Below are positions 1-31,360 of a DNA stretch of 32,000 nt, one piece after another. Position numbers and translations under genes: made by a program. The notes under the pieces are model-generated. The model saw only the letters and a program-made list of their open reading frames with translations, had not been told where the DNA came from and did no database searches. The stretch is from assembly GCF_014280175.1 (NCBI RefSeq), contig NZ_CP047931.1, forward strand, positions 420,001 to 452,000. Reading direction: 5' to 3'. This stretch comes from Synechococcus sp. A15-28 (GTDB taxonomy: Bacteria; Cyanobacteriota; Cyanobacteriia; PCC-6307; Cyanobiaceae). Each line of letters begins with the position of its first letter. The stretch's first letter is position 1.

Positions 1-1544
1 TGGACCAGTCCGCCGGAGACCTGTCCATCGGCCTTGGGCAGGCCGGGCCGGAGAGCTTCCGGCGCATGTTGCAGGAGGCGCTGCGGGATCAGACGGACTG
101 TCTGGTGGTGGTGAAGGTGCACCCGGATGTGATCCGGGGCCGCGCCCGGGGCCATTTCCGCCGTCAGGATCTGCAGCACCCGCGCATCCGCCTCTGCGCT
201 GACGGATTGCACCCTGCCGCCCTGTTAGAGCAGGCCCAGGCGGTGTATGTGGTGACCTCCCAGATGGGGTTTGAGGCGCTGTTGTGGGGACGGACCGTCC
301 ACTGCTTCGGCATGCCTTTTTATGCCGGGTGGGGACTCACCGTGGATCGTTTGCCGGCTCCGGCCCGTCGGGGAGCGTCGGTGCCGTTGGCGGCGGTGGT
401 GCATGCGGCGCTGGTGGAGGGCACCCGCTGCGTGGACCCCCATCGGCATCAACCCTGTCAGATCGAGACGCTGATGGACGCCATCGGCCTGCAACGTCGG
501 CAGCAGGGGGCGGATCCCCTGCGGGTGCAGGCCTTTGGCTTCACTCCATGGAAGCAACGCAGCCTCAAGCGCTTTCTGGCCGGCAGTGAGCTGCGCTTTC
601 GCCTGCCGCGGGCGCTGCCGGGGCCGCGGGCGGAGGCCGTGGCGGTGTGGGGCCGGCGGGCTCGACCGCGTCTGCTGGCGACGGCGCGCCGTCGGGGGCT
701 GCCGCTGCTGCATGTGGAGGACGGTTTCCTGCGCTCGGTGGGCCTGGGGGCCGATCTGATCGACCCCATCTCCTGGGTGGTGGACCGCCGCGGCATGTAT
801 TACGACGCCACGGAGGCCAGCGATCTGGAGCAGCGGCTGGCCACAGGAATCTGGAGTGAGCCGCAGTTGCAGCGGGCCGAGGCCTTGCGCCAGCAGCTGG
901 TGGCGCAGGCCATCACCAAATACAACCTCCCAGGGGGCGGATGGCAGCGCCCCGACGCTGCCAGGCGGGTGGTGCTGGTGGTGGGGCAGGTGGAAAGCGA
1001 CGCTTCCATCCGCTATGGCGCTCCGGGGCACTCCAGCAACCTGGCACTGCTGCAGGCGGTGCGTGCGGCGGAACCGGAAGCGTTCCTGGTGTACAAACCC
1101 CATCCCGACGTGGTGGCGGGTCTCTGCCGCTCCGGTGATGGGGAGCAGCGGGCGGCCCAGGTATGCGACTGCTTGCTGCGCGATGGCTCGATCCATGCCC
1201 TGTTTGAGCAGGTGGATGCCCTGCATGTGCTCACCTCCCTGGCAGGGTTTGAGGCGCTGTTGCGGGGAGTGGAGGTGCATTGCTGGGGACTGCCCTTTTA
1301 TGCGGGTTGGGGGCTGACCCAGGATCGGTTGTCCTCGCCCCGGCGGGGCCGGTCGCTGCCTTTGGCGGCGTTGGTGCATGCCGCCTTGATTGATTACCCC
1401 CGCTACGTCAGCCGCCGCAGCGGTTGGTTCATCACTCCAGAGCAAGCCATTGAGGAGCTAGTGGCATGGCGGGATGCACCTCCAGCCCGCCGCACCCTGG
1501 TGCAGGCCCTGTTCCGACACTGGGGGCGTCTGTTCAATCGTTAG
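1..1544 (+). CDS. kpsC: KpsC-like capsule polysaccharide biosynthesis protein (beta-Kdo transferase family), 5'-partial. It shows the end of one Capsule_synth domain plus a complete second one.
   Basis: The frame is open from the window edge (codons in phase from nt 3), so the ATG at 66 is internal. Two copies of the family signature are present: 'VKVHPDV...TSQMGFEALLWGRTVHCFGMPFYAGWGLTVDR' and 'YKPHPDV...TSLAGFEALLRGVEVHCWGLPFYAGWGLTQDR'. A 'VLVVGQVESDASIRYG' motif is also present. These match my memory of KpsC/KpsS (Pfam Capsule_synth). Confidence 0.8.
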   Translation, partial: DQSAGDLSIGLGQAGPESFRRMLQEALRDQTDCLVVVKVHPDVIRGRARGHFRRQDLQHPRIRLCADGLHPAALLEQAQAVYVVTSQMGFEALLWGRTVHCFGMPFYAGWGLTVDRLPAPARRGASVPLAAVVHAALVEGTRCVDPHRHQPCQIETLMDAIGLQRRQQGADPLRVQAFGFTPWKQRSLKRFLAGSELRFRLPRALPGPRAEAVAVWGRRARPRLLATARRRGLPLLHVEDGFLRSVGLGADLIDPISWVVDRRGMYYDATEASDLEQRLATGIWSEPQLQRAEALRQQLVAQAITKYNLPGGGWQRPDAARRVVLVVGQVESDASIRYGAPGHSSNLALLQAVRAAEPEAFLVYKPHPDVVAGLCRSGDGEQRAAQVCDCLLRDGSIHALFEQVDALHVLTSLAGFEALLRGVEVHCWGLPFYAGWGLTQDRLSSPRRGRSLPLAALVHAALIDYPRYVSRRSGWFITPEQAIEELVAWRDAPPARRTLVQALFRHWGRLFNR

Positions 1545-2924
1545 ATGTTGTACTTAGTGCGACTATTTATAACGAATTTTTATAGGGTCTATTAGTTAGT
1601 TGATCGTCGACAAGGTTTTCTTCTTCTGCTTGTGGTGCTCTTTTGTTGTGAATTGTTGGCGTCGGGGTGTCTCGCGTCATTCAGATTTGCGGAAATGTCT
1701 GTCAATGTTGCTGCTTTAGGCGTGGCGAATGGCTAGAGGGGATATGCATCGAGATTGTTTAGTTGGTGCCAGAGAAATTTCTTTCAAGGAATCTGCGGAA
1801 TAATTTCCACTCTTCTTCTGTGAAAAAGGTGTGGCATTTGATGGCAAGATCAAGGCCACGTTCATTTAGTCTGGGGTTTGGGTTTTTGTTGCTGATTTTG
1901 AGTCTTGGGTCAGTGGATAGATTTTTGGCTTGTTCTGGTAACATTGCATTAAGTAAGTTCCTAAAATACTGTTGTGGCTGTTGGTTATTGCTTACAAGCT
2001 CGTATTCGAGTTGAATGATTTCTATCGATCTATGCGAAATAGTTTTCTCGGACAACCTATCGTTGATTTTGCTCAAGGATGACATTAGTGTGATCTTTTC
2101 TGCAAAGGAAAAGTCTCTCGTTTCGAGGAAGCTGTTCAGGCTTGCCGATGAGGGAAGATGATTGCCTTCCTTGACGTATTGATTGTGGCATGATCGAATA
2201 AATTCATCCTCGTTGCGTGTGATAAATATTATTTGCCACTGGATTGAAGCACTTTTGAGGGAGTTTTCCAGTACTTGCATGAGCCGCCTGGTTCTAGTTT
2301 CTGCGTACCGATAGAGTCCCTTTGTGTCCTCTCCATTTTCCTTGGAAGGAAGACTGATGTCAGGGTTGTGGAAAAGCCCGAAATGAAGTGTTCCAAAAAT
2401 AGCTTCGCATGATATTAAAATGGTATCTATCATTTCTTCATTGCCTTCGCATAGCTTATTGAGAATTTTCCGTGTGTTTTTTTGTAATTCTCGCGGTACC
2501 CTGTCACTTCCAGTATCTATGTGTTGCCATAGCTCGACCAAGTCGAATTTAAGGGTTCTTGGACCTATGTAAAGGACTCTATTTTCTTGTAAAATATTGC
2601 GGTTTTTTCTGCAGTTCAGTTGAAAGTAACTGGTGCCGGTTTTGTGTAAACCGCAATGGAGTACAATTCGACTGGGCTTGAGTTTGCTCAAGGGAATGAT
2701 TGACTTTCAGGGTGTGATTTTGGCTCGGTGAGAGCTGAGGCTTTTATTGGTAGTGAGTTTGATGAAGGGGCGTTCCGGGAGAGTTTGGATTGCCGCGTAT
2801 TGGCAGTGAAATAAAAGTCAATATTGTAGTTAATAGATTCAAAATATATATTTTGTGTTTTGAATGTGTCAAGATTGAAATAGTTTCAAGTAACGGCTTG
2901 GCCACGAGACGGGCACCGGCGCTG
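1545..2924. other. AT-rich islet inside the capsule locus, with visibly lower GC than both flanks. It carries one reverse-strand gene.
   Basis: Composition changes abruptly right after the kpsC stop (1544). It returns to high GC at about 2890-2925, where the KpsS-homologous frame begins. A/T runs and A/T-ending codons dominate in between. Confidence 0.75.
1759..2691 (-). CDS. Sulfotransferase-like protein (PAPS-dependent fold), probably acquired horizontally
   Basis: A 310-aa ORF in the low-GC islet. The N-terminal 'IVLHCGLHKTGTSYFQ' resembles the 5'-phosphosulfate-binding loop (PKxGTT type). 'IFITRNEDEFIRSCHNQY' resembles the 3'-phosphate-binding motif (RxP/xxRxxSxY type). The assignment is by motif only. 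Confidence 0.5.
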   Translation of the reverse strand: MSKLKPSRIVLHCGLHKTGTSYFQLNCRKNRNILQENRVLYIGPRTLKFDLVELWQHIDTGSDRVPRELQKNTRKILNKLCEGNEEMIDTILISCEAIFGTLHFGLFHNPDISLPSKENGEDTKGLYRYAETRTRRLMQVLENSLKSASIQWQIIFITRNEDEFIRSCHNQYVKEGNHLPSSASLNSFLETRDFSFAEKITLMSSLSKINDRLSEKTISHRSIEIIQLEYELVSNNQQPQQYFRNLLNAMLPEQAKNLSTDPRLKISNKNPNPRLNERGLDLAIKCHTFFTEEEWKLFRRFLERNFSGTN

Positions 2925-4910
2925 GTGCAGGTGCGCATCGAAGGACCGGTTCTGCTGCTGATGGGCCCGATCGGGCTGTTCTTTGCCCGTTTTAGCCGCT
3001 ACCTGCGGGGCTGCGGCATCCCGGTCACCAAGGTGCGTTTCCCGCTGCGGGAATTTGGCTTTCCGGCTGATGTTTGTGTGCCGTTCCGGGAGCCGATGGA
3101 GGCCTGGCGGCCCTTTCTGCGCCAGCTGCTGCAGGAGCGGGGCATCCGCCACATCTTTATGTATGGGGACTTCATCATTCCCCACCGGATTGCGATTGAA
3201 GAGGCCCAGGCCCTTGGGATTGAGGCCTGGGTGTTCGAGCTGGGTTACCTGCGGCCCAATTACGTGACCCTGGAGCGGGACCGGGTCAATGCTCGTTCCA
3301 ACCTCAACCAACCCGCGGTCTTCTATCGCCAGCTGCCGCCGGTGGATCAGTTGCCGCGAGACATCGTGCTGGACTCGGGTTGGCGTTGGCGCAAGGCCTG
3401 GAAGGCCCCCACCTTTATCCAGCACGCCTTCACCCGTTACCCGATCATCGAGGGGGAGCACAAACTGCAACCCACCCCTGGTTTTCTCTGGTGCCAGCTG
3501 CGCGGCAGCTGGCGCTACTGGCTGTACCGCTGGCAGGAGCGGAATCTGAAGCGGCGGCTGCTGGAGCACCTCTCGTTTTTCTTGGCGGTGCTGCAGGTCT
3601 CCAGTGATTCGCAGATCCAGCTGGGCTCGCCCTACCGCGGTATGCACGACTTCATTGAGGACGTGATCCGGTCTTTTGCGGCCCATGCCCACAGCTCCGA
3701 TCATCTGGCCTTCAAACACCATCCGCGGGACCGGGGCTACAACCACTACGGAAGCCTGATCGCTGTGCTGGCAGGGCGTTACGGCGTCAGTGGCCGGGTG
3801 CACTACTTCCACGACGGCCCCCTCAGCCGCTACCTGCGCACCTGCCGCGGGGTGATCACGGTGAACAGCACGGTGGGCCTTCAAGCCCTGTTCCATGCAG
3901 TGCCCACCAAAACCATGGGCAACACCTTCTACAACCTGGACGGACTGACGGACCAGAAGCCTCTGGATGATTTCTGGCGGGACCCCCAGCCCAGTGATCG
4001 GCCGCTGTTCTGGCGCTTCTATCACCACCTGGTGATGACCACTCAGGTGAATGGCAATTTCGACGGGGACTTCCCCTTCCGCATCACCTTCCCGATTGGC
4101 CAAGGGGCTCGCCAGCTGGATCCGCAGCCGCAGCTGCCGCCGCTTCGGCCACGGCCACGGATGAACTCCCTGCTGGTGCCGGCCCGGGTGCTAGCCCGCC
4201 TGGGTTGGGCCGCCGTGGGGTTTGTCTTGTACGGCCTGCAGTTGCCTGCGGTGCTGTTGCGGCGTGCGGACTTGGCGGCGCAACTGATGACCTGGGCCTC
4301 AGCTGTGGCCTTGCGGGCGCTTGGGGTGCAGGTGGTGGTGGATGACAGTCAGCCCAGCGAGCCGGCCGGGATGCCCCTGGTGCACATCTTCAACCACCGC
4401 AGCCCCTGTGATGGCCTGGTGATTCAAGGGGTGCTGCGCCTGCCGGGCATGACCACGGCTCAGTTGCATCTGAAATGGGTGTTGCCCGGATACGCGGCCG
4501 CAGCCCGCAACGCCGGGTCGGCCGTGTTGGATCACCGTCAGCCCAGTTCGCGCCTGGAAGGGATGATGCGGGCCTCCGCGTTGTTGCGCGACCACGGTCA
4601 GATCATGCTGGCCCCCAACGGCTCATTGGTGACGCCGATCGAAGAGCGGGTGTCCCCCAGCGCCTGGATGCTGGCTCAGCACTACGACGGTTGTGTGGTG
4701 CCCTGGCTGTTTCGCTATGACGGACTGGATGAGGCTGTGGGTGCCCGATACCGCCCCCTGGCGCTGCTGTTGAGCCGGTTGACGGCGCCGTTGGGAACGA
4801 TTCACTGCCGCCGGGGCCGGTCCCAGGATCTGGTTCTGCCAAAGGATCCCCGTGATCGGGAGGGGTTCAGCCGTGCTGTGCGGGCGTATTACCAGCAAGC
4901 ACAAGACTGA
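2925..4910 (+). CDS. kpsS: KpsS-like Kdo transferase fused in frame to a C-terminal PlsC/LPLAT-type acyltransferase domain
   Basis: The N-terminal ~390 aa carry KpsS-type motifs: 'VLLLMGPIGLFFARF', 'LQVSSDSQIQLGSPY', 'LAFKHHPRDRG' and 'VITVNSTVGLQALFH'. A Pro-rich linker (QPQLPPLRPRPR) and a hydrophobic segment (LLVPARVLARLGWAAVGFVLYGLQLPAVLL) follow. Acyltransferase motifs then appear: 'FNHRSPCDG' (HX4D block, nt 4392-4412), 'ARNAGSAVLDHR', 'LAPNGSL' and 'VVPWLF'. The track start at 2790 lies in AT-rich non-homologous sequence. I prefer GTG 2925 or 2931, but the start is uncertain. Confidence 0.7.
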   Translation: MQVRIEGPVLLLMGPIGLFFARFSRYLRGCGIPVTKVRFPLREFGFPADVCVPFREPMEAWRPFLRQLLQERGIRHIFMYGDFIIPHRIAIEEAQALGIEAWVFELGYLRPNYVTLERDRVNARSNLNQPAVFYRQLPPVDQLPRDIVLDSGWRWRKAWKAPTFIQHAFTRYPIIEGEHKLQPTPGFLWCQLRGSWRYWLYRWQERNLKRRLLEHLSFFLAVLQVSSDSQIQLGSPYRGMHDFIEDVIRSFAAHAHSSDHLAFKHHPRDRGYNHYGSLIAVLAGRYGVSGRVHYFHDGPLSRYLRTCRGVITVNSTVGLQALFHAVPTKTMGNTFYNLDGLTDQKPLDDFWRDPQPSDRPLFWRFYHHLVMTTQVNGNFDGDFPFRITFPIGQGARQLDPQPQLPPLRPRPRMNSLLVPARVLARLGWAAVGFVLYGLQLPAVLLRRADLAAQLMTWASAVALRALGVQVVVDDSQPSEPAGMPLVHIFNHRSPCDGLVIQGVLRLPGMTTAQLHLKWVLPGYAAAARNAGSAVLDHRQPSSRLEGMMRASALLRDHGQIMLAPNGSLVTPIEERVSPSAWMLAQHYDGCVVPWLFRYDGLDEAVGARYRPLALLLSRLTAPLGTIHCRRGRSQDLVLPKDPRDREGFSRAVRAYYQQAQD

Positions 4911-6132
4911 TGTTGTGACCGCCGAATCCGAAGGCATTCTTGAGCAGCAGACGTTGGCCTTGATCTGAAGAAAGCTGCACAGGGCCCTGTTTGGTGACGG
5001 CCAGCTCCACCTCAGGATCCAGGGGGTCGGCATTTAGGCTGCCGGGCAATACGCCATGGCGCAGGGCCTGCAGGGCCAGGATGGTTTCCACCGCACCGGC
5101 GCCCCCCAGTAGGTGGCCCAGCTGGCCCTTGGGGGCGTAAACCGGCAGATGATCGGCAGCACTGCCAAGGCTGCGCCGCAATGCTCTGGCCTCCGCCAGG
5201 TCACCGAGGCTGGTGCCGGTGGCATGGGCCTGAACACCGCAGAGGTCTGAGGGGTTCACCTTCGCCCGACGCAAGGCCTCGTCGATGGCACGGCTGGCCT
5301 GCAGCCCCTGGGGCTCGGGGGCGACGATGTGGTGGGCATCGCTGCTGCTGCCACTGGCCAGCAACCAGCCCAGGTCGGCCCCTGGAGGCGTGTCCTGTTG
5401 CCGCATCAAGGCCAGGACGCCGGCGCCTTCGGAGAGCACGAAGCCATCTCGACCGAGGCCGTAGGGCCGGGAGGCTTGATCAGGAGCGTCGTTGCGGCTG
5501 GACAGGGCGCGCATGGCTGCAAAGCCCACCAGCCCAAGTCGGTTCACCGGAGCTTCGCTGCCCCCGGCCAGCACCAGATCGGCGCGGTCGTCGTTGAGCA
5601 GCATCTGGCCCAGCATCAATGCTTCGGCGCCGGAGGCGCAGGCGGACACCGGGGTGTGGGCACCGCCGAGCAGACCGAGCTCAATGGCCACCTGGCCAGC
5701 GGCGGCATCGGGGATCAGCATCGGCACGGTGAGGGGGTTCACCCGGCTTGGTCCCCCCGTGCTGAGTTGCGTGTGTTGCTCGTGCATGGTGGCGAGGCCG
5801 CCGATGCCCGTGCCGATCACCACGGCGATGCGGCTTGGATCCAGGCCGGTGGTGATGGAGCTGGCCATGGTCCAGGCCTCCCGTGCGGCCACCAGGGCGA
5901 GCTGGGCGCAGCGATCGGAGCGGCGGCGGAGCAGGGGCGGCAGGCTGTTGAGGGCCCCCGTTGGGACGCAACCGGCCAGACGCACGGGCAGATCCTCGGT
6001 CCAGGGCGTCTGAAGGGTTTGAATGCCACTGCGGCCGGCGATCACCGCGTCCCAGGTGCTGTTGGCATCGGCCCCCAGCGGGTTGAGGGAACCCCACCCC
6101 ACCACTGCTGTTGGTTCAGCTTTGAGAGCCAT
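4867..6132 (-). CDS. Beta-ketoacyl-ACP synthase II-type condensing enzyme (FabF/FabB-like paralogue)
   Basis: Signatures include 'VVGWGSLNPLG', the active-site Cys context 'PVSACASGAEAL', the His contexts 'QAHATGTSLGD' and 'KGQLGHLLGGAG', and the C-terminal 'NAFGFGGHNISLVL'. I chose ATG 6132 (MALKAEP...), which overlaps the ACP stop by 17 nt. The track start at 6180 is less likely. Confidence 0.8.
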   Translation of the reverse strand: MALKAEPTAVVGWGSLNPLGADANSTWDAVIAGRSGIQTLQTPWTEDLPVRLAGCVPTGALNSLPPLLRRRSDRCAQLALVAAREAWTMASSITTGLDPSRIAVVIGTGIGGLATMHEQHTQLSTGGPSRVNPLTVPMLIPDAAAGQVAIELGLLGGAHTPVSACASGAEALMLGQMLLNDDRADLVLAGGSEAPVNRLGLVGFAAMRALSSRNDAPDQASRPYGLGRDGFVLSEGAGVLALMRQQDTPPGADLGWLLASGSSSDAHHIVAPEPQGLQASRAIDEALRRAKVNPSDLCGVQAHATGTSLGDLAEARALRRSLGSAADHLPVYAPKGQLGHLLGGAGAVETILALQALRHGVLPGSLNADPLDPEVELAVTKQGPVQLSSDQGQRLLLKNAFGFGGHNISLVLAGNTPAQHG

Positions 6133-6397
6133 CGCTCTGGCGGAGACTGGGGGATTCCAGGTGCTGCTGGATGTCCGCAACCGTGCGGAACCGGAGTAGT
6201 TCCTCTTCCTTGATCCGGATGCCGAAGTTGGTGTCTGCCTCGATCAGGATTTCGTAGAACCCAAGGGAGTCAATCCCCACGTCCTCCATCAGCCGGGCAT
6301 CAGGGGTGATCACGGCTGGATCGGCGCCGGAGATGCGGTGCAGCATCTCGATCAGCCGTCCCTGCAGCTCTTGCTTGTCAGGGCAGCTCTCACCCAA
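6116..6397 (-). CDS. Acyl carrier protein (dedicated, non-housekeeping)
   Basis: 93 aa with the phosphopantetheine attachment context 'EDVGIDSLGFYEIL'. It lies between the N-acyltransferase and the KAS genes. The only in-frame start upstream of helix I is TTG at 6397. Confidence 0.7.
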   Translation of the reverse strand: MGESCPDKQELQGRLIEMLHRISGADPAVITPDARLMEDVGIDSLGFYEILIEADTNFGIRIKEEELLRFRTVADIQQHLESPSLRQSDGSQS

Positions 6398-6442
6398 CGC
6401 ATGACCTCTCGGTGAGTAGTAAAGGTACCAGTGATGGTGGGA

Positions 6443-7354
6443 TTACTCGTCACCTCGGTACCAGCTGAAGCGTTGGTAGACGGGCTGGTGGGGCAGGTCG
6501 ATGAACAGGGCGAGCCGTTCTGGCGGCAACCGCCGCAGGTCGGCGGCCATCAGGATTTCAGTGATCTGGTTGAAGTCCAGGGCAAGGGACAGATCACAGA
6601 CTTCCGAGTGCATCAAGTTGAAGTACTGACGCAGCAGCACCGGTAATCGGAAATCGTCGGAGAGGGTCTGGCGGATCTCCTGCTCGAGGGCCTGGATGTG
6701 GCCGCTGGGATGGGGGGTGTCATCGGCGTGAATGCCTGGGAAGGGATGGCGTGGGGCCGGTAAGGGGGTGTTAAGGCGCCGGTAGGGCGGACGCAGCAGG
6801 GCGCTGAGGAAGGCGGCGTTCACCGCATCGCTGTAGGCGAAGTGGTTGTAGGAGACCAACCCGTGCAGCAGCTGGTAGCCGCTGCGGGCAGCGATCAACA
6901 GACCGCCGCGGAACAGGGCCATCAACGAATGGGGCTGCCGTTGGAAGCGTTCCGCCAGGGCGACCCTGCCGATCTCGAGATGGTTGGTGCGACTGGCCAG
7001 GTCCGCCTTGATGCCGGGGTAGACGTGTTCGAGGTAGGAGCCATCGCTGCCAGGCAAGGAGCTGGCACCGGCGGGGATGAATTGCAACCGGGCCGATCCG
7101 GCGAGGTCTCCACTGCTGCGTTCCACCAACAGAAGATGGTCGTAATGGGGATCGCGTCCGTCGAGGTCGCGCTCGTCACCGGACCCGCTCAGTTGCTTGC
7201 GATAAGTCGATTCTCGCAACCGTCCCACCGCGTCTGCCACCGGATCAAAGGCGGCCCCTGCGATCAGATGCAGGTCCAGGTCATCGATCGCCAGAAGTCG
7301 CGTGTCCGACGCCTCGGCCACAGCAGAGGGAATGGACGGACCAGACAGCGTCAT
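6443..7354 (-). CDS. GNAT-superfamily N-acyltransferase of the OlsB / N-acyl amino acid synthase ('putative hemolysin', Acetyltransf_5) type
   Basis: 'VGRLRESTYRKQL...DLDGRDPHYDHLLLVERSSGDLAGSARLQF' and 'LEIGRVALAERFQRQPHSLMALFRGGLLIAARSGYQLLHGLVS' match the OlsB-like pattern as I remember it (RLRyxVF...D.D.fD...HLlv.d...G..RL, then E.gR...). The ~300 aa length is typical for the family. Confidence 0.6.
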   Translation of the reverse strand: MTLSGPSIPSAVAEASDTRLLAIDDLDLHLIAGAAFDPVADAVGRLRESTYRKQLSGSGDERDLDGRDPHYDHLLLVERSSGDLAGSARLQFIPAGASSLPGSDGSYLEHVYPGIKADLASRTNHLEIGRVALAERFQRQPHSLMALFRGGLLIAARSGYQLLHGLVSYNHFAYSDAVNAAFLSALLRPPYRRLNTPLPAPRHPFPGIHADDTPHPSGHIQALEQEIRQTLSDDFRLPVLLRQYFNLMHSEVCDLSLALDFNQITEILMAADLRRLPPERLALFIDLPHQPVYQRFSWYRGDE

Positions 7355-7430
7355 TCGTGTTCCAATCTGTCTCAGCCAGCCGGCAGATTAGACCGACTCG
7401 TTCGAGCTTTCGTCGCTTCTCACTGCCTTG

Positions 7431-8519
7431 ATGCCTTTCCCTTCACGCCCTGCTGCTCTGGTCTGCACCCGGCTGATCGCGGGTCTGGCTGCCGCAGCAA
7501 CCCTGGCGGTTGTCCCGATCGCGGCATCGGCGGACTTACTGACTCGGGCCAGCGGGACCTCCAGCCTGAATCGGGAGGCCTTTCGCTATCGACTGGGTCC
7601 CGGGGACAGCCTGGCGATGTCGGTGTTCAAGATGGATGGCTACGAGGCCAAGGTGGAGGTGCTCAGTGACGGCACCATCAACCTGCCTCGCATCGGCACG
7701 ATCGAGGTTTGGGGGCTCACGCTCGAGGAGGCACGCCAGCGCATTACCGCGGCCTATGAGGTGTTCCTACGCCGGCCGATTGTTTATCTCGACTTGGTTA
7801 GTTCACGGCCGGTGAAGGTGACGGTCACCGGAGAGGTGGAGCGCCCCGGCGTGTTCAGCCTGCCGACCCAGGCAGAGGGGGGCTGGCCGACGCTGGTGGA
7901 TGTGGTGCAGAAGGCCGGCGGCGTCAGCGCCAGCGGTGATCTCTCCAGAATTGAGGTCTTGCGTCCCTCGGCCCGCCCCGAAGGCTCGATGCGTCGCTAT
8001 CAGTTTGATTACCTCACCGTGTTGCGTGAGGGGGGGCATGCCCCCAATCCGCTGATCTACGACGGCGACAGCATTCGCTTGTACCAGAGCGAAAGCGCTG
8101 ACAATGCTGATCTGATCACCACAGCGGCCTCCAACTTCGCCCCCGACACGATTCGTGTGAATGTGATCGGTGAGGTGGCCAAACCGGGCATTCAGCAGGT
8201 GCCCTCCAATGCCCCGCTGTCCCAGGCGATCTTTGCGTCGGGTGGAATCACCCGCCGCGGCAGCATCAGCACCGTGGAACTCGTCCGGGTGGATGGCGAC
8301 GGGGAACCGACGGTGAGGGTGATGAGCTTTGACCCCAGCGCTGTGTTGAGCAGCTCCACCAATCCCCCATTACGTCAGAACGATGTGATTGTTGTGAACC
8401 GCTCCGCTCTGGCCAAGGTGACCGATGGGTTGACCGACGCCTTCTCACCGTTGACGCCGATTGTGAACGCCGCCTCGATCTTCCGGATCCTCGGTTTGCC
8501 CACGGGATTGGGCAACTGA
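7431..8519 (+). CDS. Outer-membrane polysaccharide export protein (Wza/KpsD, OPX family)
   Basis: It has an N-terminal signal-like segment (AALVCTRLIAGLAAAATLAVVPIAASA). The Poly_export signature 'YRLGPGDSLAMSVF...VLSDGTINLPRIGTIEVWGLTLEEARQRI' is present, with SLBB-like repeats ('VKVTVTGEVERPGVF', 'IRVNVIGEVAKPGIQ'). ATG 7431 is preferred over TTG 7428. Confidence 0.8.
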   Translation: MPFPSRPAALVCTRLIAGLAAAATLAVVPIAASADLLTRASGTSSLNREAFRYRLGPGDSLAMSVFKMDGYEAKVEVLSDGTINLPRIGTIEVWGLTLEEARQRITAAYEVFLRRPIVYLDLVSSRPVKVTVTGEVERPGVFSLPTQAEGGWPTLVDVVQKAGGVSASGDLSRIEVLRPSARPEGSMRRYQFDYLTVLREGGHAPNPLIYDGDSIRLYQSESADNADLITTAASNFAPDTIRVNVIGEVAKPGIQQVPSNAPLSQAIFASGGITRRGSISTVELVRVDGDGEPTVRVMSFDPSAVLSSSTNPPLRQNDVIVVNRSALAKVTDGLTDAFSPLTPIVNAASIFRILGLPTGLGN

Positions 8520-8543: not shown

Positions 8544-9839
8544 TTAAATCCCCAGACGCTCCCAGATCACTCCGAGGTTGGCCTGGTGCAGTTCGGTGCT
8601 GAAGCACTCTGCCAACTGCTCAGCTGAAAGCTTGCTGGTGACGTCCGCATCAGCCTCAAGATTGGCGCGGAAGTTGCCGCCGTCAGTGTTCCAGGCAGTG
8701 TGAGCTTTGCGCTGCACGATCCGGTAGGCCTCCTCTCGGCTCATGCCAGTGTCCACTAGCGCCAGCAGCACCCGCTGGCTGAACACCACGCCGCCATACA
8801 CGTTCATGTTGCGGCGCATGTTGTCGGGGTAAACCCCCAGACCCTTCACCACGCTTGTCATCTCCCGCAGCATGAAGTGAAGGGCCACTGAGCAATCGGG
8901 CAGCATCATCCGTTCGGTGGAACTGTGGCTGATGTCGCGCTCATGCCAGAGGGCAACGTTTTCCAGTGCTGCCACCACGTAGCTGCGCAGCACCCGGGCC
9001 AGGCCGCTGATCCGTTCGCTGCGAATCGGGTTGCGCTTGTGGGGCATGGCCGAGCTGCCCTTCTGGCCCTTGGCGAAGTTCTCTTCCACCTCGAGCACAT
9101 CGGTGCGCTGCAGGTTGCGGATCTCCGTGGCGAATCGGTCGAGGGAGGCGCCCACCAGGGCCAGGGTCTGCACGTAATCGGCGTGGCGATCGCGGGAGAT
9201 CACCTGGGTGCTGGCGGTGTCAGGCGTGAGGCCAAGGATTTCGCAGGTGATGGTTTCCACCTGGGGGTCGGTGTTGGCGTAGGTGCCCATGGCCCCACTG
9301 ATCTGACCGACGGCCACGTCCTGCTCCAGTCGCGCCAGGCGGCTGCGGTTGCGTTCGGTTTCCGCCAGCCAGCCGGCGATCTTGAAGCCGAAGGTGATCG
9401 GCTCGCCATGGATGGCATGGGAGCGGCCGATCATTTCCGTGCTCTTGTGCTCACGGGCGAGGCTGCGCAGGGCATCGGCCAGGGCATCCAGCTCTTGGCG
9501 CAGCAGGACCACGGAGCGCTTCAGTTGCAACGCCAGGCCGGTATCCAGCACATCGCTGCTGGTCATGCCCACATGGATGTGACGGCCGGCATCGCCAACG
9601 TGTTCGTTGACGTTGGTTAGAAAGGCGATCACGTCGTGACGCACCTCGGCTTCGATTTCGAGGATGCGTTCCACCTCGAAGCTGGCTTTGGCCTTGATCG
9701 TGTCCAGGCTCTCCTGGGGCACGCGGCCGAGGCGGCAGTTGGCTTCTGTGGCGGCGATTTCCACATCCAGCCAACTCTGAAACTTCGCCTGCTCACTCCA
9801 GACGGCACCCATTACGGGCAGGGTGTAACGCTCGATCAC
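8544..9839 (-). CDS. purB: Adenylosuccinate lyase
   Basis: '(V/M)IERYTLPVMGAVWSEQAKF', 'GMTSSDVLDT' and 'GSSAMPHKRNP' are classic PurB/fumarate-lyase signatures. GTG 9839 gives the canonical MIERY N-terminus. The track's TTG at 9860 is probably too long. Confidence 0.95.
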   Translation of the reverse strand: MIERYTLPVMGAVWSEQAKFQSWLDVEIAATEANCRLGRVPQESLDTIKAKASFEVERILEIEAEVRHDVIAFLTNVNEHVGDAGRHIHVGMTSSDVLDTGLALQLKRSVVLLRQELDALADALRSLAREHKSTEMIGRSHAIHGEPITFGFKIAGWLAETERNRSRLARLEQDVAVGQISGAMGTYANTDPQVETITCEILGLTPDTASTQVISRDRHADYVQTLALVGASLDRFATEIRNLQRTDVLEVEENFAKGQKGSSAMPHKRNPIRSERISGLARVLRSYVVAALENVALWHERDISHSSTERMMLPDCSVALHFMLREMTSVVKGLGVYPDNMRRNMNVYGGVVFSQRVLLALVDTGMSREEAYRIVQRKAHTAWNTDGGNFRANLEADADVTSKLSAEQLAECFSTELHQANLGVIWERLGI

Positions 9840-9861
9840 CGGCGCGCTCGGTTGGAACAAC

Positions 9862-10709: not shown

Positions 10710-11135
<426 letters not shown>

Positions 11136-11170
11136 TTAAGGTCTGTCTTGAGCGAGGACCTGTTCAACCT

Positions 11171-11560
11171 TTGACCCAGACGCCACAGTACGGCGAACGT
11201 GCGATCGCCGAAGCCGAGCTGATCTGCTTCGATAATCCCAGGCCTGGCCGGCCCTACGAGGTGTCGATCGAGCTGCCGGAGTTCACCTGCAAGTGCCCCT
11301 TCTCGGGCTACCCCGATTTCGCGGTGCTGCGCTTGATCTATCAGCCTGGTCCCCGGGTGGTGGAGCTCAAGGCCATCAAGCTCTACATCAACAGCTTCCG
11401 CGATCAGTCGATCTCCCATGAGGAGGTGACCAACCGGATCCTGGATGACCTGGTGGCGGCCACCGATCCGGTGTGGATGCAGCTGGAGGCTGATTTCAAC
11501 CCCCGCGGCAATGTCCACACGGTGGTGCGGGTCAGTCATGGGGCGCGTCAGGCCTGTTGA
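11171..11560 (+). CDS. queF: NADPH-dependent 7-cyano-7-deazaguanine (preQ0) reductase
   Basis: '[26 protein letters not shown]' and 'SHEEVTNRI' are QueF type-I signatures. The start is TTG as given by the track, and is uncertain. Confidence 0.9.
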
Positions 11561-11615
11561 GGGCCAGGGCTCTGTCAACCTCGATGTCCTCTCCCGATTG
11601 AAAAAATCAAGTTCT

Positions 11616-13563
<1,948 letters not shown>

Positions 13564-13653
13564 CGCCTGCTCGAGAAGCGCCTCGCTGGATTGGGCCAGA
13601 TCCGACAGCAGCAGCAGGGGGTCCAGTGGTGGCCATGTGTGAGTTGGAGCAGC

Positions 13654-14886
13654 CTATCGAGACTTCCGCGCCCGCCCGCCGATCAGACCGGTGGATTCCA
13701 GCGAGCAGCGCACCAGCAGCCCCAGGATCACCAGGCTGGACATCAACGAGTTGCCGCCGTAGCTCACCAGCGGCAGCGGCAGGCCAGTGGTGGGCATGGC
13801 GCCGGAGGCGACGGCGATGTTGAGGATCGACTGGCCCACCAGGATCGTGCAGCAGCCGATCGCCACCAGCTTGGTCTGGTTGCAGCGGCAGCGCAGAGCC
13901 ACCCGCAGGCCCACCCAGGCCACCAGCATCAGGAACAGCAGCAGCAGCAGCGAGCCCACAAATCCGAATTCCTCGGCGAACACCGCATAGATGAAGTCCG
14001 TGCTCTGAATCGGCAGGTATTGCAGCTTCTGGGTGGAGAGGCCATAGCCCTGGCCGGTCAGGCCACCGGAGCCGATGGCCAGCAGGCTCTGCACCAGCTG
14101 GTAGCCGTCTCCCATCGGATCAGCCCAGGGGTCGAGGAAGGACACCACCCGCAGCCGCTGGTACTCGTTGATCAGGATGCTGGCGGTGCCCAGGGCTCCA
14201 CCGGCGATGGCTGTGCCCAGCAGGCTGCGCCAGCGGATCCCTGAAGCAAGTGCCACCATCCACAAGGTCAGGCCGATCAGGGCGGCGGTGGAGAGGTTGG
14301 GCTGTTTGAGGATCAGCAGCAGCAACCCGCCGAAGCTGCCCAGCCACAGCAGCTTCTGATCCAGTCGCATGCGGCACCAGGGGGCGAACAGGTTGGCGGC
14401 CTGCAGCACTACAAACGGTTTCACCAGCTCGGACGGCTGGATCTGCAGCGGCCCCAGCACCAGCCAGCGACTGGCCCCGTTCACCGTGGTGCCCATCACC
14501 AGGGTGGCGGCAATCAGCAGGCAGCCCCCCCACAGGGCCGGGCCCGCCCAGCGCAGGCAGCGCCTGAGGTTGGCCGTCACCGCCAAGCTGAACAGGCTCC
14601 AGCTCGCGATCATCCACACCGCCTGACGCTTCACATAAAAGGCCCCATCACCGATCTCGCGGGCGGCCACCCACCAACTGGCCGAAGCCAGCACCAGCAA
14701 TCCCGCCAAGCTCCAGAAGGCAGCCAGGCCCACCAGTAACCGGGCTTCCGCCGGCCAAAGGGGCCAGGGCAGAGGCATCAGCCGCTGCAGCAGCCCGGGC
14801 CGTTGCCGAACCCGTTCACGGGCGGTGCGGCGACGGGGGACAGTGGCGGTGACCAACGAGGGCTGTTGCAACATTCGATGCCCCAT
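13654..14886 (-). CDS. ftsW: SEDS-family peptidoglycan glycosyltransferase FtsW
   Basis: 'RWLVLGPLQIQPSELVKPFVVL', 'DFIYAVFAEEFGFVGS' and 'GLPLPLVSYGGNSL' are FtsW/RodA signatures. Confidence 0.85.
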   Translation of the reverse strand: MGHRMLQQPSLVTATVPRRRTARERVRQRPGLLQRLMPLPWPLWPAEARLLVGLAAFWSLAGLLVLASASWWVAAREIGDGAFYVKRQAVWMIASWSLFSLAVTANLRRCLRWAGPALWGGCLLIAATLVMGTTVNGASRWLVLGPLQIQPSELVKPFVVLQAANLFAPWCRMRLDQKLLWLGSFGGLLLLILKQPNLSTAALIGLTLWMVALASGIRWRSLLGTAIAGGALGTASILINEYQRLRVVSFLDPWADPMGDGYQLVQSLLAIGSGGLTGQGYGLSTQKLQYLPIQSTDFIYAVFAEEFGFVGSLLLLLFLMLVAWVGLRVALRCRCNQTKLVAIGCCTILVGQSILNIAVASGAMPTTGLPLPLVSYGGNSLMSSLVILGLLVRCSLESTGLIGGRARKSR

Positions 14887-14954
14887 TGAGCCGCGTTATT
14901 GACGTTTTGCCAAGCCGTTGGTTGTCAACAAATCAAGCCTTGAAGCCCTTGGCA

Positions 14955-15155
14955 TCAGGCGGCCCGCAGCCGTTCGTGCTCCACTTCCCATTGCACAAAT
15001 TGCCCCCAGGCCTGCTGACGCACCCAGCAGCGACCGCCGCGACATTGAATCAATTGAAATGGCGGCAAGTCGGCGGGTTGGTTGTCCAGGGTCACGAAGG
15101 TTCCCGGCCGCAGCAGCGGCACCACCTTGGCGGGTTTTGGGTGGTGATCAGACAC
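14955..15155 (-). CDS. Small conserved-looking hypothetical protein (66 aa)
   Basis: A GTG-start ORF with genome-typical GC3-rich codon usage that does not overlap other genes. 'CRGGRCWVRQQAWGQFVQWEVEHERL' looks protein-like. No family was recognised. Confidence 0.4.
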   Translation of the reverse strand: MSDHHPKPAKVVPLLRPGTFVTLDNQPADLPPFQLIQCRGGRCWVRQQAWGQFVQWEVEHERLRAA

Positions 15156-15337
15156 GTCCAGGCGGTGGCTTGCAGCGATCCTCCCGGCGGATCAAGGGGC
15201 ACCGGATGGATCCCCGGTTTTCTTCGGGATCGGGGCGGTTTATGTGACGGAATGGCACAAATGCGCCCCGGCGGTGCGGAGCTGCTGACGTCATCGCGCC
15301 GGGTTTGCACACTTGGTGGCGAGCCAGACCCTCCGTT

Positions 15338-16240
15338 GTGGCGGCCACGATCTATCTGCACTGGACCGCCACTGGCTACGACTGGATCCGCCCCGGTCAC
15401 TACCACCGGATCATCGGCGGCGATGGCCGCGTGCATCGGCTGCATGCCCTCACGGCGGATTTGCTGGCCCACACCTGGCGGCGCAACAGCAACAGCGTTG
15501 CCCTGGCCTGCGCCTGCATGGGCGGTCAGCCCGACCCCTGGACCCAGCCGCCTACAGCGCCTCAGCTCCACAGCCTCTGCCTGGAGGTGGCGGCCATCGC
15601 CCGCAGCTGGGGCTGGAACGCTGATGACATCACGATCCAGTCAGTGATGACCCATGCGGAAGCCGCCTCCAACCGCGACGGCCGCTGGATGCATGACAAC
15701 TACGGACCGGTGATCTGGGGCGGCACCGGCGAGCGCTGGGATCTGCTGCAGCTGGAGCCCCATGGGCCCAGTGATGGCGGTGCGCAGTTGCGGCAACGCA
15801 TTGCAGCCTTGCTGTCTGCAGATGAGCCGGAGTCCTTTAAGAACGATCCGCTGGCCTTCCGTGGCATCACCAGCATCGAAGTCCGCGGTCAGGAGCTATC
15901 GGTGCAGATCGATGCCGATGGCCGCTCCTGGGGGCTGATGGCGGATCTGTTGCAGCGCTACGACCTTTCAGCCCACTGGGATGCCGATCAACGCCGTGTC
16001 TTGATCGCCGCTGCCGATGTGGCCCCCACCTACCGCGACGATGCCGTGCAGGCTGCTGTGGGCTGGCCCTTGGTGGAGATGGCTCTGCAGGGCGGTCAGT
16101 CCCCGGTGATCCTCACCGGCATCCTGCGCCCTTCTCTGGAGGGGGATCGCGCCTGGTGCCGCGTGCTGGAGTTCGCCGAGGAGTTTGGCATCAGCGTCAG
16201 CTTCGATCCGCTGGTCCTGGGGGAACGGCGCGGGGGCTGA
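15338..16240 (+). CDS. N-acetylmuramoyl-L-alanine amidase-like (Amidase_2/PGRP-type) protein with a repeated C-terminal domain
   Basis: 'TIYLHWTATGY' and 'HTWRRNSNSVALACACMGG' resemble the Zn-ligand His and the H..N..s.GI blocks of Amidase_2. The C-terminus has two similar segments ('IEVRGQELSVQIDADGRSWGLMADLLQRYDLSAHWDADQRRVLI' and 'ILTGILRPSLEGDRAWCRVLEFAEEFGISVSFDP'). These are reminiscent of copper-amine-oxidase-N-like stalk domains. The start is uncertain (TTG 15305 or GTG 15338). Confidence 0.5.
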   Translation: MAATIYLHWTATGYDWIRPGHYHRIIGGDGRVHRLHALTADLLAHTWRRNSNSVALACACMGGQPDPWTQPPTAPQLHSLCLEVAAIARSWGWNADDITIQSVMTHAEAASNRDGRWMHDNYGPVIWGGTGERWDLLQLEPHGPSDGGAQLRQRIAALLSADEPESFKNDPLAFRGITSIEVRGQELSVQIDADGRSWGLMADLLQRYDLSAHWDADQRRVLIAAADVAPTYRDDAVQAAVGWPLVEMALQGGQSPVILTGILRPSLEGDRAWCRVLEFAEEFGISVSFDPLVLGERRGG

Positions 16241-24077: not shown

Positions 24078-24104
24078 TTGCTCCGAATGCCTTTCGCCAT
24101 TTGA

Positions 24105-24494
<390 letters not shown>

Positions 24495-29398: not shown

Positions 29399-29728
29399 AT
29401 GTCCGAGGTGGCCACCTACACCGTCCACGCTGAGTTCGAGGGCACCACGCACAGTTTCAGCTGCCGTGAGGATCAAACCGTCCTGAATGCCGCAGAAGCA
29501 GCCGGCATCCCCCTGCCCAGCTCCTGCTGCTCCGGTGTCTGCACAACGTGTGCCGCTGTGGTCACGGAGGGACGTGTCGAGCAACCCGATGCAATGGGAG
29601 TGAAGGGGGAACTGCAGGAGCAGGGTTACAGCCTGCTGTGTGTGGCTTTTCCCCGGGCTGATTTGACCTTGAAGGCCGGCCAGGAAGACGCTCTCTATGA
29701 AGCCCAGTTCGGCCAATATCAGAAATGA
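29399..29728 (+). CDS. Plant-type [2Fe-2S] ferredoxin
   Basis: The Cys pattern 'SCCSGVCTTCAA' plus 'LLCVAFP' gives the CX4CX2C...C arrangement. Confidence 0.9.
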   Translation: MSEVATYTVHAEFEGTTHSFSCREDQTVLNAAEAAGIPLPSSCCSGVCTTCAAVVTEGRVEQPDAMGVKGELQEQGYSLLCVAFPRADLTLKAGQEDALYEAQFGQYQK

Positions 29729-29910
29729 GGCTGCGGCGTCTGGAACAGCAGTTGCCCTGGCCACAGACCATCCCCCCGCAGCAGTTGCGCCGTTGGGTGA
29801 TGCAACAGTTGGCTCCGCAAGCTCCTCTTTTGCGTTGGGCCATTACAGCGGTGACAGTCGACTCCAGCGGTGATCGCTGTTTGCAGGTGGAAGCGGTCGT
29901 TGAAGGATGA
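29725..29910 (+). CDS. Small hypothetical protein (61 aa), translationally coupled on both sides
   Basis: ATGA start/stop overlaps occur at 29725-29728 and 29907-29910. Codon usage is genome-typical. No family was recognised. Confidence 0.5.
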   Translation: MRLRRLEQQLPWPQTIPPQQLRRWVMQQLAPQAPLLRWAITAVTVDSSGDRCLQVEAVVEG

Positions 29911-30953: not shown

Positions 30954-31360
30954 TGCCCGGAGGCTTCGCCCTGGATCCAGGCCCCTGCCCCTGTGGAGGT
31001 GGTGAGTACAGCCGCTGTTGCGGGCCGTTCCACCGTGGGGAGCGGCGGGCGGAGACCGCCGAACAGTTGATGCGTTCCCGTTATTCCGCCTTCGCCAAAA
31101 GGGAGGTGGACTACCTGCGTCGCACCCATGGCCAGCCGGCGCCGCGCCGCGCCCTGCTCCAGGCCTGCCGTCAGACGACGTGGCTGGGCCTGACGATCCA
31201 TGCCGTCGATGGGGGTGGTGGGGATGATCTGGAGGGAACCGTTCGCTTTGAGGCCCGGCACCAGCAGGGGGTGCTGGTGGAGACGTCGCTGTTTCAGCGC
31301 CGTGGTGGCTCTCTCGCTGGGGAGTGGCTTTACATCCGCGCCCTTGAGCTGAACGACTAA
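30953..31360 (+). CDS. ychJ: YchJ-family (UPF0225) SEC-C motif protein
   Basis: 'CPCGGGEYSRCCGPFH' is the SEC-C metal-binding motif. 'AEQLMRSRYSAFA' is the YchJ signature. Confidence 0.8.
   Translation: MPGGFALDPGPCPCGGGEYSRCCGPFHRGERRAETAEQLMRSRYSAFAKREVDYLRRTHGQPAPRRALLQACRQTTWLGLTIHAVDGGGGDDLEGTVRFEARHQQGVLVETSLFQRRGGSLAGEWLYIRALELND

Follow-up and report, generated by a model that had tools for sequence, protein, structure and literature searches.

A Kps-type surface-polysaccharide locus with a putative aminolipid-type acylation module in picocyanobacteria

Introduction

Capsules of the group-2 type, as known from Escherichia coli and Neisseria, rely on a constant Kps core in which KpsS and the dual-module KpsC act as transferases of 3-deoxy-D-manno-octulosonate (Kdo). 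A QXXXD nucleophile motif and an HP motif define these retaining beta-Kdo transferases, and the acceptor of the characterised KpsS is (lyso)phosphatidylglycerol (PG) (PMC10148158). Here we analyze a stretch of 32,000 nucleotides from the marine cyanobacterium Synechococcus sp. A15-28 (contig NZ_CP047931.1, positions 420,001 to 452,000), hereafter the window, which carries at its left end a locus combining KpsC and KpsS with two putative lipid acyltransferases. The locus can be classed as a Kps-type system into which a putative acylation module of the aminolipid type is built, and the literature that we searched contains no description of it. Its composition is best explained as that of the core, conserved among picocyanobacteria, of a group-2-like (Kps-type) system for surface polysaccharide, in which the chain-starting enzymes are hard-wired to a lipid-acylation module.

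The similarity to the group-2 Kps systems comprises KpsS, a dual-module KpsC with QXXXD and HP motifs, an outer-membrane polysaccharide export (OPX) protein and a set of variable polymer genes standing beside a constant core. Freshwater relatives of the locus also have kpsE, kpsT and kpsM adjacent, and the sialic-acid-type chemistry of marine relatives recalls the polysialic acid capsules of K1 and serogroup B. In contrast to the group-2 systems, KpsS carries a C-terminal PlsC-type domain, and the core includes an OlsB-family enzyme, sometimes accompanied by an acyl carrier protein (ACP) and a beta-ketoacyl-ACP synthase (KAS). Moreover, the locus lacks both kpsF and kpsU, the marine genomes have kpsMTE unlinked, the OPX protein is short, and KpsS itself is divergent, scoring 277 bits with its model, well below the equivalog cut-off of 600.

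The acylation part of the locus is best compared with the OlsB/OlsA, OlsF and GlsB/GlsA enzymes, which make acyloxyacyl aminolipids (reviewed in PMC12971839). In both, an N-acyltransferase of the Acetyltransf_5 type is paired with an O-acyltransferase of the PlsC family. The OlsB-like protein of the locus aligns across the whole N-acyltransferase half of OlsF, and many of its nearest relatives outside its own clade share the length and layout of OlsF. Unlike OlsB, OlsF and GlsB, it scores far below the equivalog cut-offs and belongs to a separate clade of standalone proteins, and the O-acyltransferase is fused to a glycosyltransferase instead of the N-acyltransferase. The same review, published in 2026, mentions OlsB homologues in Nostocales and reports no aminolipid from cyanobacteria (PMC12971839).

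A capsule with an anchor other than PG has been described for the Vi antigen of Salmonella Typhi. This ABC-transporter-type capsule ends in a diacylated N-acetylhexosamine (diacyl-HexNAc), and a dedicated, locus-encoded acyltransferase, VexE, is needed to build the anchor (PMC8760489). Vi loci differ from the one studied here in that they lack kpsS and kpsC, whereas the Kdo transferases are retained in Synechococcus, and VexE is an unrelated acyltransferase containing tetratricopeptide repeats.

Rhizobia provide a further point of comparison. In the NodF/NodE/NodA and AcpXL/FabF-XL/LpxXL sets, and in the rkp-1 region with RkpF, a locus-encoded ACP and a FabF-like KAS pass an unusual acyl chain to an acyltransferase for the lipidation of a surface glycoconjugate; a KpsS-like gene is likewise part of the rkp-1 K-antigen region. 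Compared to these sets, the Synechococcus locus has no type I polyketide or fatty acid synthase, its ACP and KAS are optional, and its acyltransferases come from other families. A literature search on rkpF/rkpJ returned nothing, and across the literature searched we found no description of the Synechococcus locus, of a fusion protein of glycosyltransferase family GT107, of a capsule-acyltransferase association or of a marine Synechococcus capsule. For cyanobacteria as a whole, Pereira et al. (2015) noted that KpsS and KpsC are of confined distribution and went no further (PMC4594306).

Results

Seven genes adjoin each other at window positions 1-8519, as revealed by the open reading frame (ORF) listing and by Pfam and NCBIfam searches. 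They encode KpsC, a low-GC orphan protein, a fusion of KpsS to a PlsC-type domain (KpsS::PlsC), a FabF-like KAS, an ACP, an N-acyltransferase of the OlsB/OlsF family (OlsB-like) and an OPX protein. All seven had been named in the original prediction, made from the letters and their ORFs, and its domain calls for KpsC/KpsS, OPX, the PlsC and OlsB families, ACP and KAS are backed by Pfam/NCBIfam matches and by motifs. Six of the seven assignments are supported by hidden Markov models (HMMs) plus catalytic motifs, the exception being the low-GC orphan, which is treated separately below. The features of the six genes, with their best domain matches and motifs, are as follows.

3..1544, plus strand: 3' part of kpsC, dual-module beta-Kdo glycosyltransferase (Capsule_synth, 1.4e-62)
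6-20 and 987-1001, plus strand: KpsC QXXXD motifs, QSAGD and QVESD (motif search)
117-128 and 1098-1109, plus strand: KpsC HP motifs, VHPD and PHPD (motif search)
2898..4910, start uncertain, plus strand: kpsS::plsC-like fusion (Capsule_synth, 1.8e-55; Acyltransferase PF01553, 5e-7)
3594-3608, plus strand: QVSSD, QXXXD motif of the KpsS part
3717-3731, plus strand: HHPRD, HP motif of the KpsS part
4392-4412, plus strand: NHRSPCD, HX4D catalytic motif of the PlsC type
4611-4628, plus strand: PNGS motif of the PlsC-like domain
4867..6132, minus strand: FabF-like beta-ketoacyl-ACP synthase, KAS II type (ketoacyl-synt, 6.4e-44; Ketoacyl-synt_C, 3.3e-30)
5629-5643 (ACASG), 5212-5226 (HATGT) and 5104-5118 (GHLLG), minus strand: intact Cys-His-His triad of the KAS (motif search)
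6116..6397, minus strand: dedicated acyl carrier protein (PP-binding, 2.1e-10)
6263-6271, minus strand: DSL, phosphopantetheine site of the ACP (motif search)
6443..7354, minus strand: OlsB/OlsF-family N-acyltransferase of the Kps-associated clade (Acetyltransf_5, PF13444, 4.8e-11)
7428..8519, plus strand: OPX protein of the Wza/KpsD type with signal peptide (Poly_export, 8e-19; SLBB, 9.6e-20; SLBB_2, 2.7e-14)

The assignment of KpsC was confirmed, with the reservation that the window begins inside the gene: reading frame 3 stays open from nucleotide (nt) 3 onward, and 514 of about 665 codons are present. In relatives (L018, L083, L170) full KpsC measures 661-670 amino acids (aa), and the start of the frame aligns with the middle part of these proteins, which places some 150 codons upstream of the window. 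Both glycosyltransferase modules retain their QXXXD and HP motifs.

We scanned one genome per species and obtained 122 relatives, of which 80 were kept. All 80 are picocyanobacterial, comprising marine Synechococcus, Cyanobium, Vulcanococcus, Aphanothece and metagenome-assembled genomes (MAGs) labelled 'Prochlorococcaceae'. A few MAG records (L029, L040, L068, L072, L075) bear the titles Bradyrhizobium, Mesorhizobium, Sphingobacterium, Pseudanabaena or Bifidobacterium and look mislabelled. In a tblastn matrix, the gene order KpsC, KpsS::PlsC, (KAS, ACP), OlsB-like, OPX recurred in all 72 loci that extend far enough, the other 8 contigs being too short. The loci fall into two architectures. In the marine/Cyanobium architecture, to which A15-28 belongs, KAS and ACP are present and purB follows downstream. 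Upstream of kpsC, in the part that would lie directly outside the window, this architecture carries genes for a cytidylyltransferase resembling PseF, NeuA and KdsB, for three glycosyltransferases of the DUF6716 family, and for a NeuB synthase with CBS and AP_endonuc_2 domains attached to it, whereas kpsM, kpsT and kpsE belong to the freshwater flank. The upstream block was seen in L083 (1-7875), L170 (1-7267) and L171 (3297-12533), where the NeuB fusion spans 750-770 aa and one DUF6716 protein gives a weak Capsule_synth match. The cytidylyltransferase beside kpsC scores 123 bits with the PseF model and up to 58 bits with KdsB models; together with the synthase it looks like an enzyme of nonulosonic-acid metabolism, and the GT107 enzymes of the locus may use the corresponding nucleotide sugar, CMP-nonulosonate. 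The upstream block of the relatives predicts a sulfated polymer containing nonulosonic acid.

The freshwater architecture, found in about 30 loci (L001/L002, L048, L050-L081), encodes a fusion protein that is about 52% identical and lacks KAS and ACP. Here, kpsE, kpsT, kpsM and a GT2 glycosyltransferase gene lie upstream, a GT1 gene is placed between the OlsB-like gene and OPX, and the outer flanks are different. One locus (L068) is intermediate, being of the freshwater type with KAS and ACP present. In the vicinity of the freshwater loci there is a gene for a cytochrome P450 (L001, 20241-21578). KpsC, KpsS::PlsC, OlsB-like and OPX are all that the two architectures have in common. A strain-specific genomic island is ruled out, as the locus is syntenic across the clade and vertically conserved beside purB. 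An origin from phage is likewise ruled out, since neither the fusion nor the OlsB-like gene had relatives in viral collections.

For the reciprocal search, metagenomes were scanned with aligned OlsB-like proteins as the seed, which yielded 80 loci. In 35 of these, more than 2.5 kb are available beyond the gene; KpsS/PlsC was present in all 35 and KAS in 34. An OlsB-like gene without KpsS was never found, neither in the 72 genome loci nor in the 35 metagenome loci, and no OlsB-like clade member with readable context lacked a Kps partner. The link extends to remote members of this clade, with 24-33% identity and on contigs of GC content 0.37-0.49, which adjoin KpsS, KpsC or the same PlsC-like domain in four contexts. 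In L164/L165, an MsbA-like ABC transporter gene is followed by an OlsB-like gene that overlaps KpsS (50% identical to that of the window), and a KpsC-like gene with a single module is also present. L166 shows the order kpsT/M, OPX, OlsB-like, ACP, KAS, KpsS without a PlsC domain, a lipase-like gene, KpsC. L168 combines a KpsD-like gene, Capsule_synth, CTP_transf_3, GNAT, NeuB and OlsB-like genes in a single operon. Finally, in L169 the same PlsC-like domain (35% identity, motifs NHESPFD and FPSGSL) is encoded at the end of a gene that is directly followed by the OlsB-like gene and then by CysD/CysN. Thus, the association of the OlsB-like gene with a Kps partner survives a complete turnover of the flanking genes in five architectures.

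These data bear on the claim that the lipid genes belong with the Kps genes, which they uphold for the genome loci, the metagenome loci and the distant clade members alike. Two refutations named in the original prediction, missing HMM support for the KpsC/KpsS and OlsB/PlsC assignments and an occurrence of the N-acyltransferase, with or without ACP and KAS, apart from the Kps genes, were not borne out in these loci. The further claim that a lipid 'trio' of N-acyltransferase, ACP and KAS accompanies kpsC/kpsS is right for the N-acyltransferase and wrong for KAS and ACP. The trio as a functional unit is ruled out, because roughly 30 freshwater loci do without KAS and ACP and still possess both the OlsB-like gene and the fusion. 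The constant pair is OlsB-like plus KpsS, usually with the PlsC-like domain, and KAS and ACP are optional suppliers.

Two of the distant loci carry additional genes. In L166, the stretch between KpsS and KpsC (11688-14107) encodes an alpha/beta-hydrolase of 372 aa with weak Lipase_3 and thioesterase matches, and a cytochrome P450. In L169, the genes following the PlsC-like/OlsB-like pair (1779-3767, GC 0.37) encode CysD (PAPS_reduct) and a CysN-like GTPase, a further connection between the module and sulfation.

The KpsS::PlsC fusion protein consists of an N-terminal KpsS beta-Kdo transferase, two hydrophobic helices and a C-terminal acyltransferase domain of the PlsC family. The fusion had been predicted, and it is confirmed with the limitation that its start codon is uncertain within 2898-2961, since the native 5' end of kpsS was lost to the low-GC insertion; candidate starts are TTG at 2898, GTG at 2925 or 2931 and a late ATG at 2961. 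The KpsS domain is complete, covering positions 14-387 of the 390 positions of the KpsS equivalog profile (277 bits, cut-off 600), and the PF01553 match of the acyltransferase domain reaches 30 bits against a cut-off of 23. An AlphaFold2 (AF2) model of the fusion has a pLDDT of 77 and predicts the helices at residues 431-458 and 462-479. Its GT-B half matches the KpsC structures 6mgd and 6mgb in Foldseek; a search with the whole model returned GT-B folds only and was uninformative on the PlsC half. The isolated PlsC-like domain (window 4170-4910) found no PDB sequence at E<=10. We retrieved 422 homologues of the fusion at E<=1e-10. Nearly all of the 120 listed have the two Pfam domains, and those that bear a name come from Synechococcus or Cyanobium. 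Their public-record labels are generic, namely 'capsular biosynthesis protein' or '1-acyl-sn-glycerol-3-phosphate acyltransferase'. At least 106 loci encode the PlsC-like domain, its HX4D motif unimpaired, on the same polypeptide as KpsS, and the HX4D pattern is kept in 123 of 124 alignable loci, the single exception being due to an ambiguous base.

A marine Synechococcus subclade (e.g. BS301-5m-G53; L049, L096, L116, L144) retains a tail of about 245 aa from which the HX4D histidine and the Pfam acyltransferase signal have gone. Wherever the contig reaches (L096, L116, L144), the OlsB-like, ACP and KAS genes of this subclade are still intact.

The remaining lipid genes form a minus-strand operon in the order olsB-like, acp, kas, which converges on the fusion gene such that the 3' ends of the KAS gene and the fusion gene overlap by 44 nt (4867-4910). 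The ACP stop overlaps the KAS start, which was set by a 421-aa gene call in L170, by 17 nt (6116-6132), and this suggests translational coupling of the two genes. Both ketoacyl-synthase domains are present in the KAS, which scores 381 bits with the fabF model TIGR03150, under the cut-off of 494. It is a divergent, locus-specific paralogue, as judged from its sequence, and not the housekeeping FabF. For the ACP, the best ACP model gives 46.7 bits at a cut-off of 84. An identity with housekeeping FabF and AcpP is ruled out for the pair by the sub-cut-off scores, the linkage to the locus and the absence from the freshwater architecture.

In the OlsB-like protein, residues 37-284 match positions 318-568 of the 570-position OlsF profile at 1.1e-16, that is, the C-terminal, N-acyltransferase half. 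The protein contains the motifs of its clade (SYLEHVYPG, EIGR, VSYNHF, LPVLLRQY, DFNQITEILM), and a PDB sequence search gave no meaningful match. In an exhaustive search of 1.84 billion representative proteins, many of its nearest relatives beyond a handful of picocyanobacterial clusters were proteins of about 600 aa that match via their C-terminal half. Three full-length outside relatives were scanned with NCBIfam. All three are OlsF-like with a GlsB/OlsB-like N-acyltransferase half, and two of them also have a GlsA-like O-acyltransferase half. In a neighbour-joining tree, drawn without bootstrap and with some labels shifted by one, which leaves the split untouched, the Kps-linked standalone OlsB-like proteins form one clade apart from the OlsF-like proteins. 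The OPX gene is divergent from the olsB-like operon and keeps this position in all loci that reach far enough. With 363 aa, its product is Wza-sized rather than KpsD-sized, and the 73-bp intergenic region between the two genes contains no Pho-box-like element.

The locus of A15-28 is interrupted between kpsC and kpsS by a low-GC insertion of 1.34 kb that harbours the orphan gene on the minus strand.

1545..2882, no strand: low-GC insertion between kpsC and kpsS (GC 0.38-0.43)
1759..2691, minus strand: orphan protein of 310 aa, P-loop nucleoside monophosphate kinase/sulfotransferase-like fold (AF2 model, Foldseek)
2629-2646, minus strand: HKTGTS motif of the orphan (motif inspection)
2191-2217, minus strand: R-x7-S motif of the orphan (motif inspection)

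The GC content of the orphan gene is 0.41, compared to 0.63-0.68 in its neighbours. In the closest relative (L170, fusion 93% identical), kpsC and kpsS are separated by a gap of 20 nt with nothing between, indicating that the orphan gene was inserted in A15-28, or relocated there from a lower-GC donor. No repeats were found at the borders of the insertion. The low-GC segment contains a strong sigma-70-like promoter on the minus strand (2872-2843, 11 of 12 matches).

The designation of the orphan as 'sulfotransferase-like' in the original prediction found no HMM or profile support: the protein has no Pfam match even at E=10 and no sequence or profile match in the PDB. Its family comprises 153 homologues, none with a recorded Pfam domain, and the few named sources are hypothetical proteins of marine Synechococcus. 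An AF2 model built with 12 family members (pLDDT 84, pTM 0.84) gave adenylate kinases, zeta toxin and adenosine phosphosulfate kinase as top Foldseek matches, with sulfotransferases at ranks 29 and 43, all at TM<0.55. Aligning the orphan family with two neighbouring sulfotransferases of L171 by hhalign was negative (probability 0.1). The HKTGTS and R-x7-S motifs resemble the 5'-phosphosulfate-binding (5'-PSB) and 3'-phosphate-binding (3'-PB) motifs for phosphoadenosine phosphosulfate (PAPS). In L171 and L083, a homologue of the orphan lies after the NeuB-fusion gene, to which it is translationally coupled in the relatives, and before a Sulfotransfer_2 gene, which in L171 is followed by Sulfotransfer_1. 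A sulfotransferase role of the orphan is plausible but unproven.

Downstream, the locus ends at a gene that forms its right-hand border in marine and Cyanobium-type genomes.

8544..9860, minus strand: purB (TIGR00928, 544 bits, above cut-off)

This gene is syntenic in loci of the marine architecture (tblastn matrix). From here on, the window represents the picocyanobacterial core genome, with purB, glnB, resB, ccdA, ftsW, apcAB, apcE, a methyltransferase gene and the atp operon. These genes, like the homologues named Synechococcus or Cyanobium, confirm that the DNA is picocyanobacterial. Within the ATP synthase operon, directly after the atpB/atpI-type gene (ATP-synt_A), lies an ATPC RNA motif (RF01067, 75 bits, E=4e-13) at 24093-24179 on the plus strand. 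Three long ORFs of the core region, at 11108-11806 (minus strand), 14886-15647 (plus strand) and 29562-31397 (minus strand), have no Pfam match, and some of them may be spurious given a genome GC of 63%. The window contains no tRNA genes, no KpsM, KpsT or KpsE, and, within its 32 kb, no genes for CMP-Kdo supply (KdsA/KdsB, KpsF/KpsU).

Discussion

The constant association between capsule and acyltransferase genes makes a dedicated lipid-anchor module the best explanation of this locus. Underlying this view are the gene content, the intact catalytic motifs, the fusion of KpsS to the PlsC-type domain, and the constancy with which the OlsB-like gene keeps its neighbours in several unrelated architectures. 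While the polymer genes change, the acyltransferases stay with the genes for initiation and export and hence more likely serve the anchor than the polymer. That they build or tailor the anchor lipid should have a probability of roughly one half. The more specific version, in which KpsS would start the Kdo linker not on PG but on a phosphorus-free N-acyl (acyloxyacyl) aminolipid that the OlsB-like enzyme would provide together with the PlsC domain fused to KpsS, is possible and at present rather doubtful. The anchor reading as a whole also draws on the outside relatives that match OlsF and GlsA, in which the same two activities make one acyloxyacyl aminolipid.

We infer the following order of steps. 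Where present, the dedicated ACP and the FabF-like KAS would supply a special acyl-ACP, probably a 3-oxo- or 3-hydroxyacyl-ACP, from which the OlsB/OlsF-family enzyme would move the acyl chain onto an amine, giving an N-acyl 'lyso' lipid. The fused PlsC-type domain could then add a second, ester-linked chain, comparable to OlsA and GlsA. The KpsS domain, presumably tethered at the membrane, would place the first beta-Kdo on this lipid, and the two KpsC modules would lengthen the Kdo linker. Subsequently, polymer-specific enzymes should build the chain; in close relatives, candidates are the NeuB fusion, the CMP-sugar synthetase, the three DUF6716 glycosyltransferases and the sulfotransferases. 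In the last step, an ABC transporter together with the OPX protein would export the product.

Several observations weigh against this scheme. The known products of OlsB enzymes, N-acylated ornithine, glutamine or glycine, lack an obvious Kdo-accepting hydroxyl except for the 3-OH that is used by the PlsC step. The OlsB-like protein reaches 60.6 bits against the OlsF cut-off of 620 and gives no OlsB or GlsB equivalog match at E<=0.01, and the isolated PlsC-like domain matches no OlsA, GlsA, PlsC or other NCBIfam model at E<=0.1. With neither acyltransferase reaching the OlsB/OlsA/GlsA equivalog threshold, the term 'ornithine-lipid-like' that was initially proposed fails as a family assignment and is to be read as an analogy only. 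The KpsS proteins of L164-L166 have no PlsC-like tail, and in the marine subclade with a degenerate KpsS tail (L049, L096, L116, L144) HX4D is lost; two acyl chains are thus not obligatory. In the marine relatives, kpsM, kpsT and kpsE do not occur within about 20 kb of the locus. Furthermore, most loci come from one monophyletic group, so that part of the conservation reflects inherited synteny. Finally, the idea that a phosphorus-free anchor would suit a phosphorus-limited ocean is weakened by the freshwater Cyanobium-like genomes, in which the module is equally conserved.

Among the alternatives, an ordinary PG anchor with remodelled acyl chains survives best. In such a system, the PlsC-like domain would re-acylate lyso-PG-Kdo or provide PG with a chain made by ACP and KAS, and the OlsB-like protein would have a separate, accessory job. 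All motifs are present in KpsS and KpsC, which are genuine enzymes of the GT107 type, and the acceptor of the characterised KpsS fits this proposal, as does the general ability of cyanobacteria to make PG. PlsC-family enzymes typically acylate lysophospholipids, and the isolated domain is unlike any OlsA or GlsA model. The explanation leaves aside, however, the most constant partner of the system, since the OlsB-like gene is present even where KpsS has no PlsC domain (L164/L165, L166) and PG offers no amine to acylate. Taken together, we consider such a PG anchor unlikely.

The acyl groups might instead decorate the sugar chain, with the OlsB-like protein, a GNAT enzyme, attaching a (hydroxy)acyl group made on the dedicated ACP to the nitrogen of an amino sugar or of a precursor of nonulosonic acid, and the PlsC-like domain O-acylating the polymer. 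The locus of the marine relatives indeed includes the NeuB fusion and the PseF/NeuA-like cytidylyltransferase, the OlsB-like gene of L168 directly follows NeuB and another GNAT gene in one operon, and N-acyl variants are common among nonulosonic acids. Yet in the roughly 30 freshwater loci, the OlsB-like gene and the fusion are retained with no NeuB or cytidylyltransferase within 10 kb and with GT1 and GT2 enzymes instead, and L164 is also without NeuB. Moreover, those scanned outside relatives that have a curated match are aminolipid synthases (OlsF, GlsB, OlsB), with no model of a sugar N-acyltransferase among the hits, and the fusion to the initiating KpsS, including membrane helices, points to the lipid end of the molecule. 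A role in chain decoration therefore appears quite improbable. In the last alternative, the product of the OlsB-like/PlsC-like pair would be an aminolipid free in the membrane, for instance the outer one, and the pair would merely be co-inherited or co-regulated with the Kps genes. This would fit the strong synteny within one clade, from which most loci come, but it is very hard to reconcile with the joining of KpsS and the PlsC-like domain in one protein, the overlap of the OlsB-like gene with KpsS in an unrelated low-GC context, the persistence of the association in all five architectures and the constant presence of a Kps partner, and we give it little credence.

If KpsS does start on such an aminolipid, capsules of the ABC-transporter type would have a third anchor beside PG-Kdo and the diacyl-HexNAc of Vi. 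Most marine Synechococcus and freshwater Cyanobium would possess it, and cyanobacteria would thereby gain their first product of the aminolipid type. A PG-poly-Kdo terminus counts as the conserved hallmark of KpsS/KpsC systems; a widespread lineage of this kind would show that the lipid end is variable and would point to the origin of the acceptor. Together with the upstream genes for nonulosonic acid and sulfation, the locus predicts that Synechococcus and Cyanobium carry a lipid-anchored, acidic and probably sulfated surface polymer, which would be relevant to phage adsorption, grazing, aggregation and carbon export.

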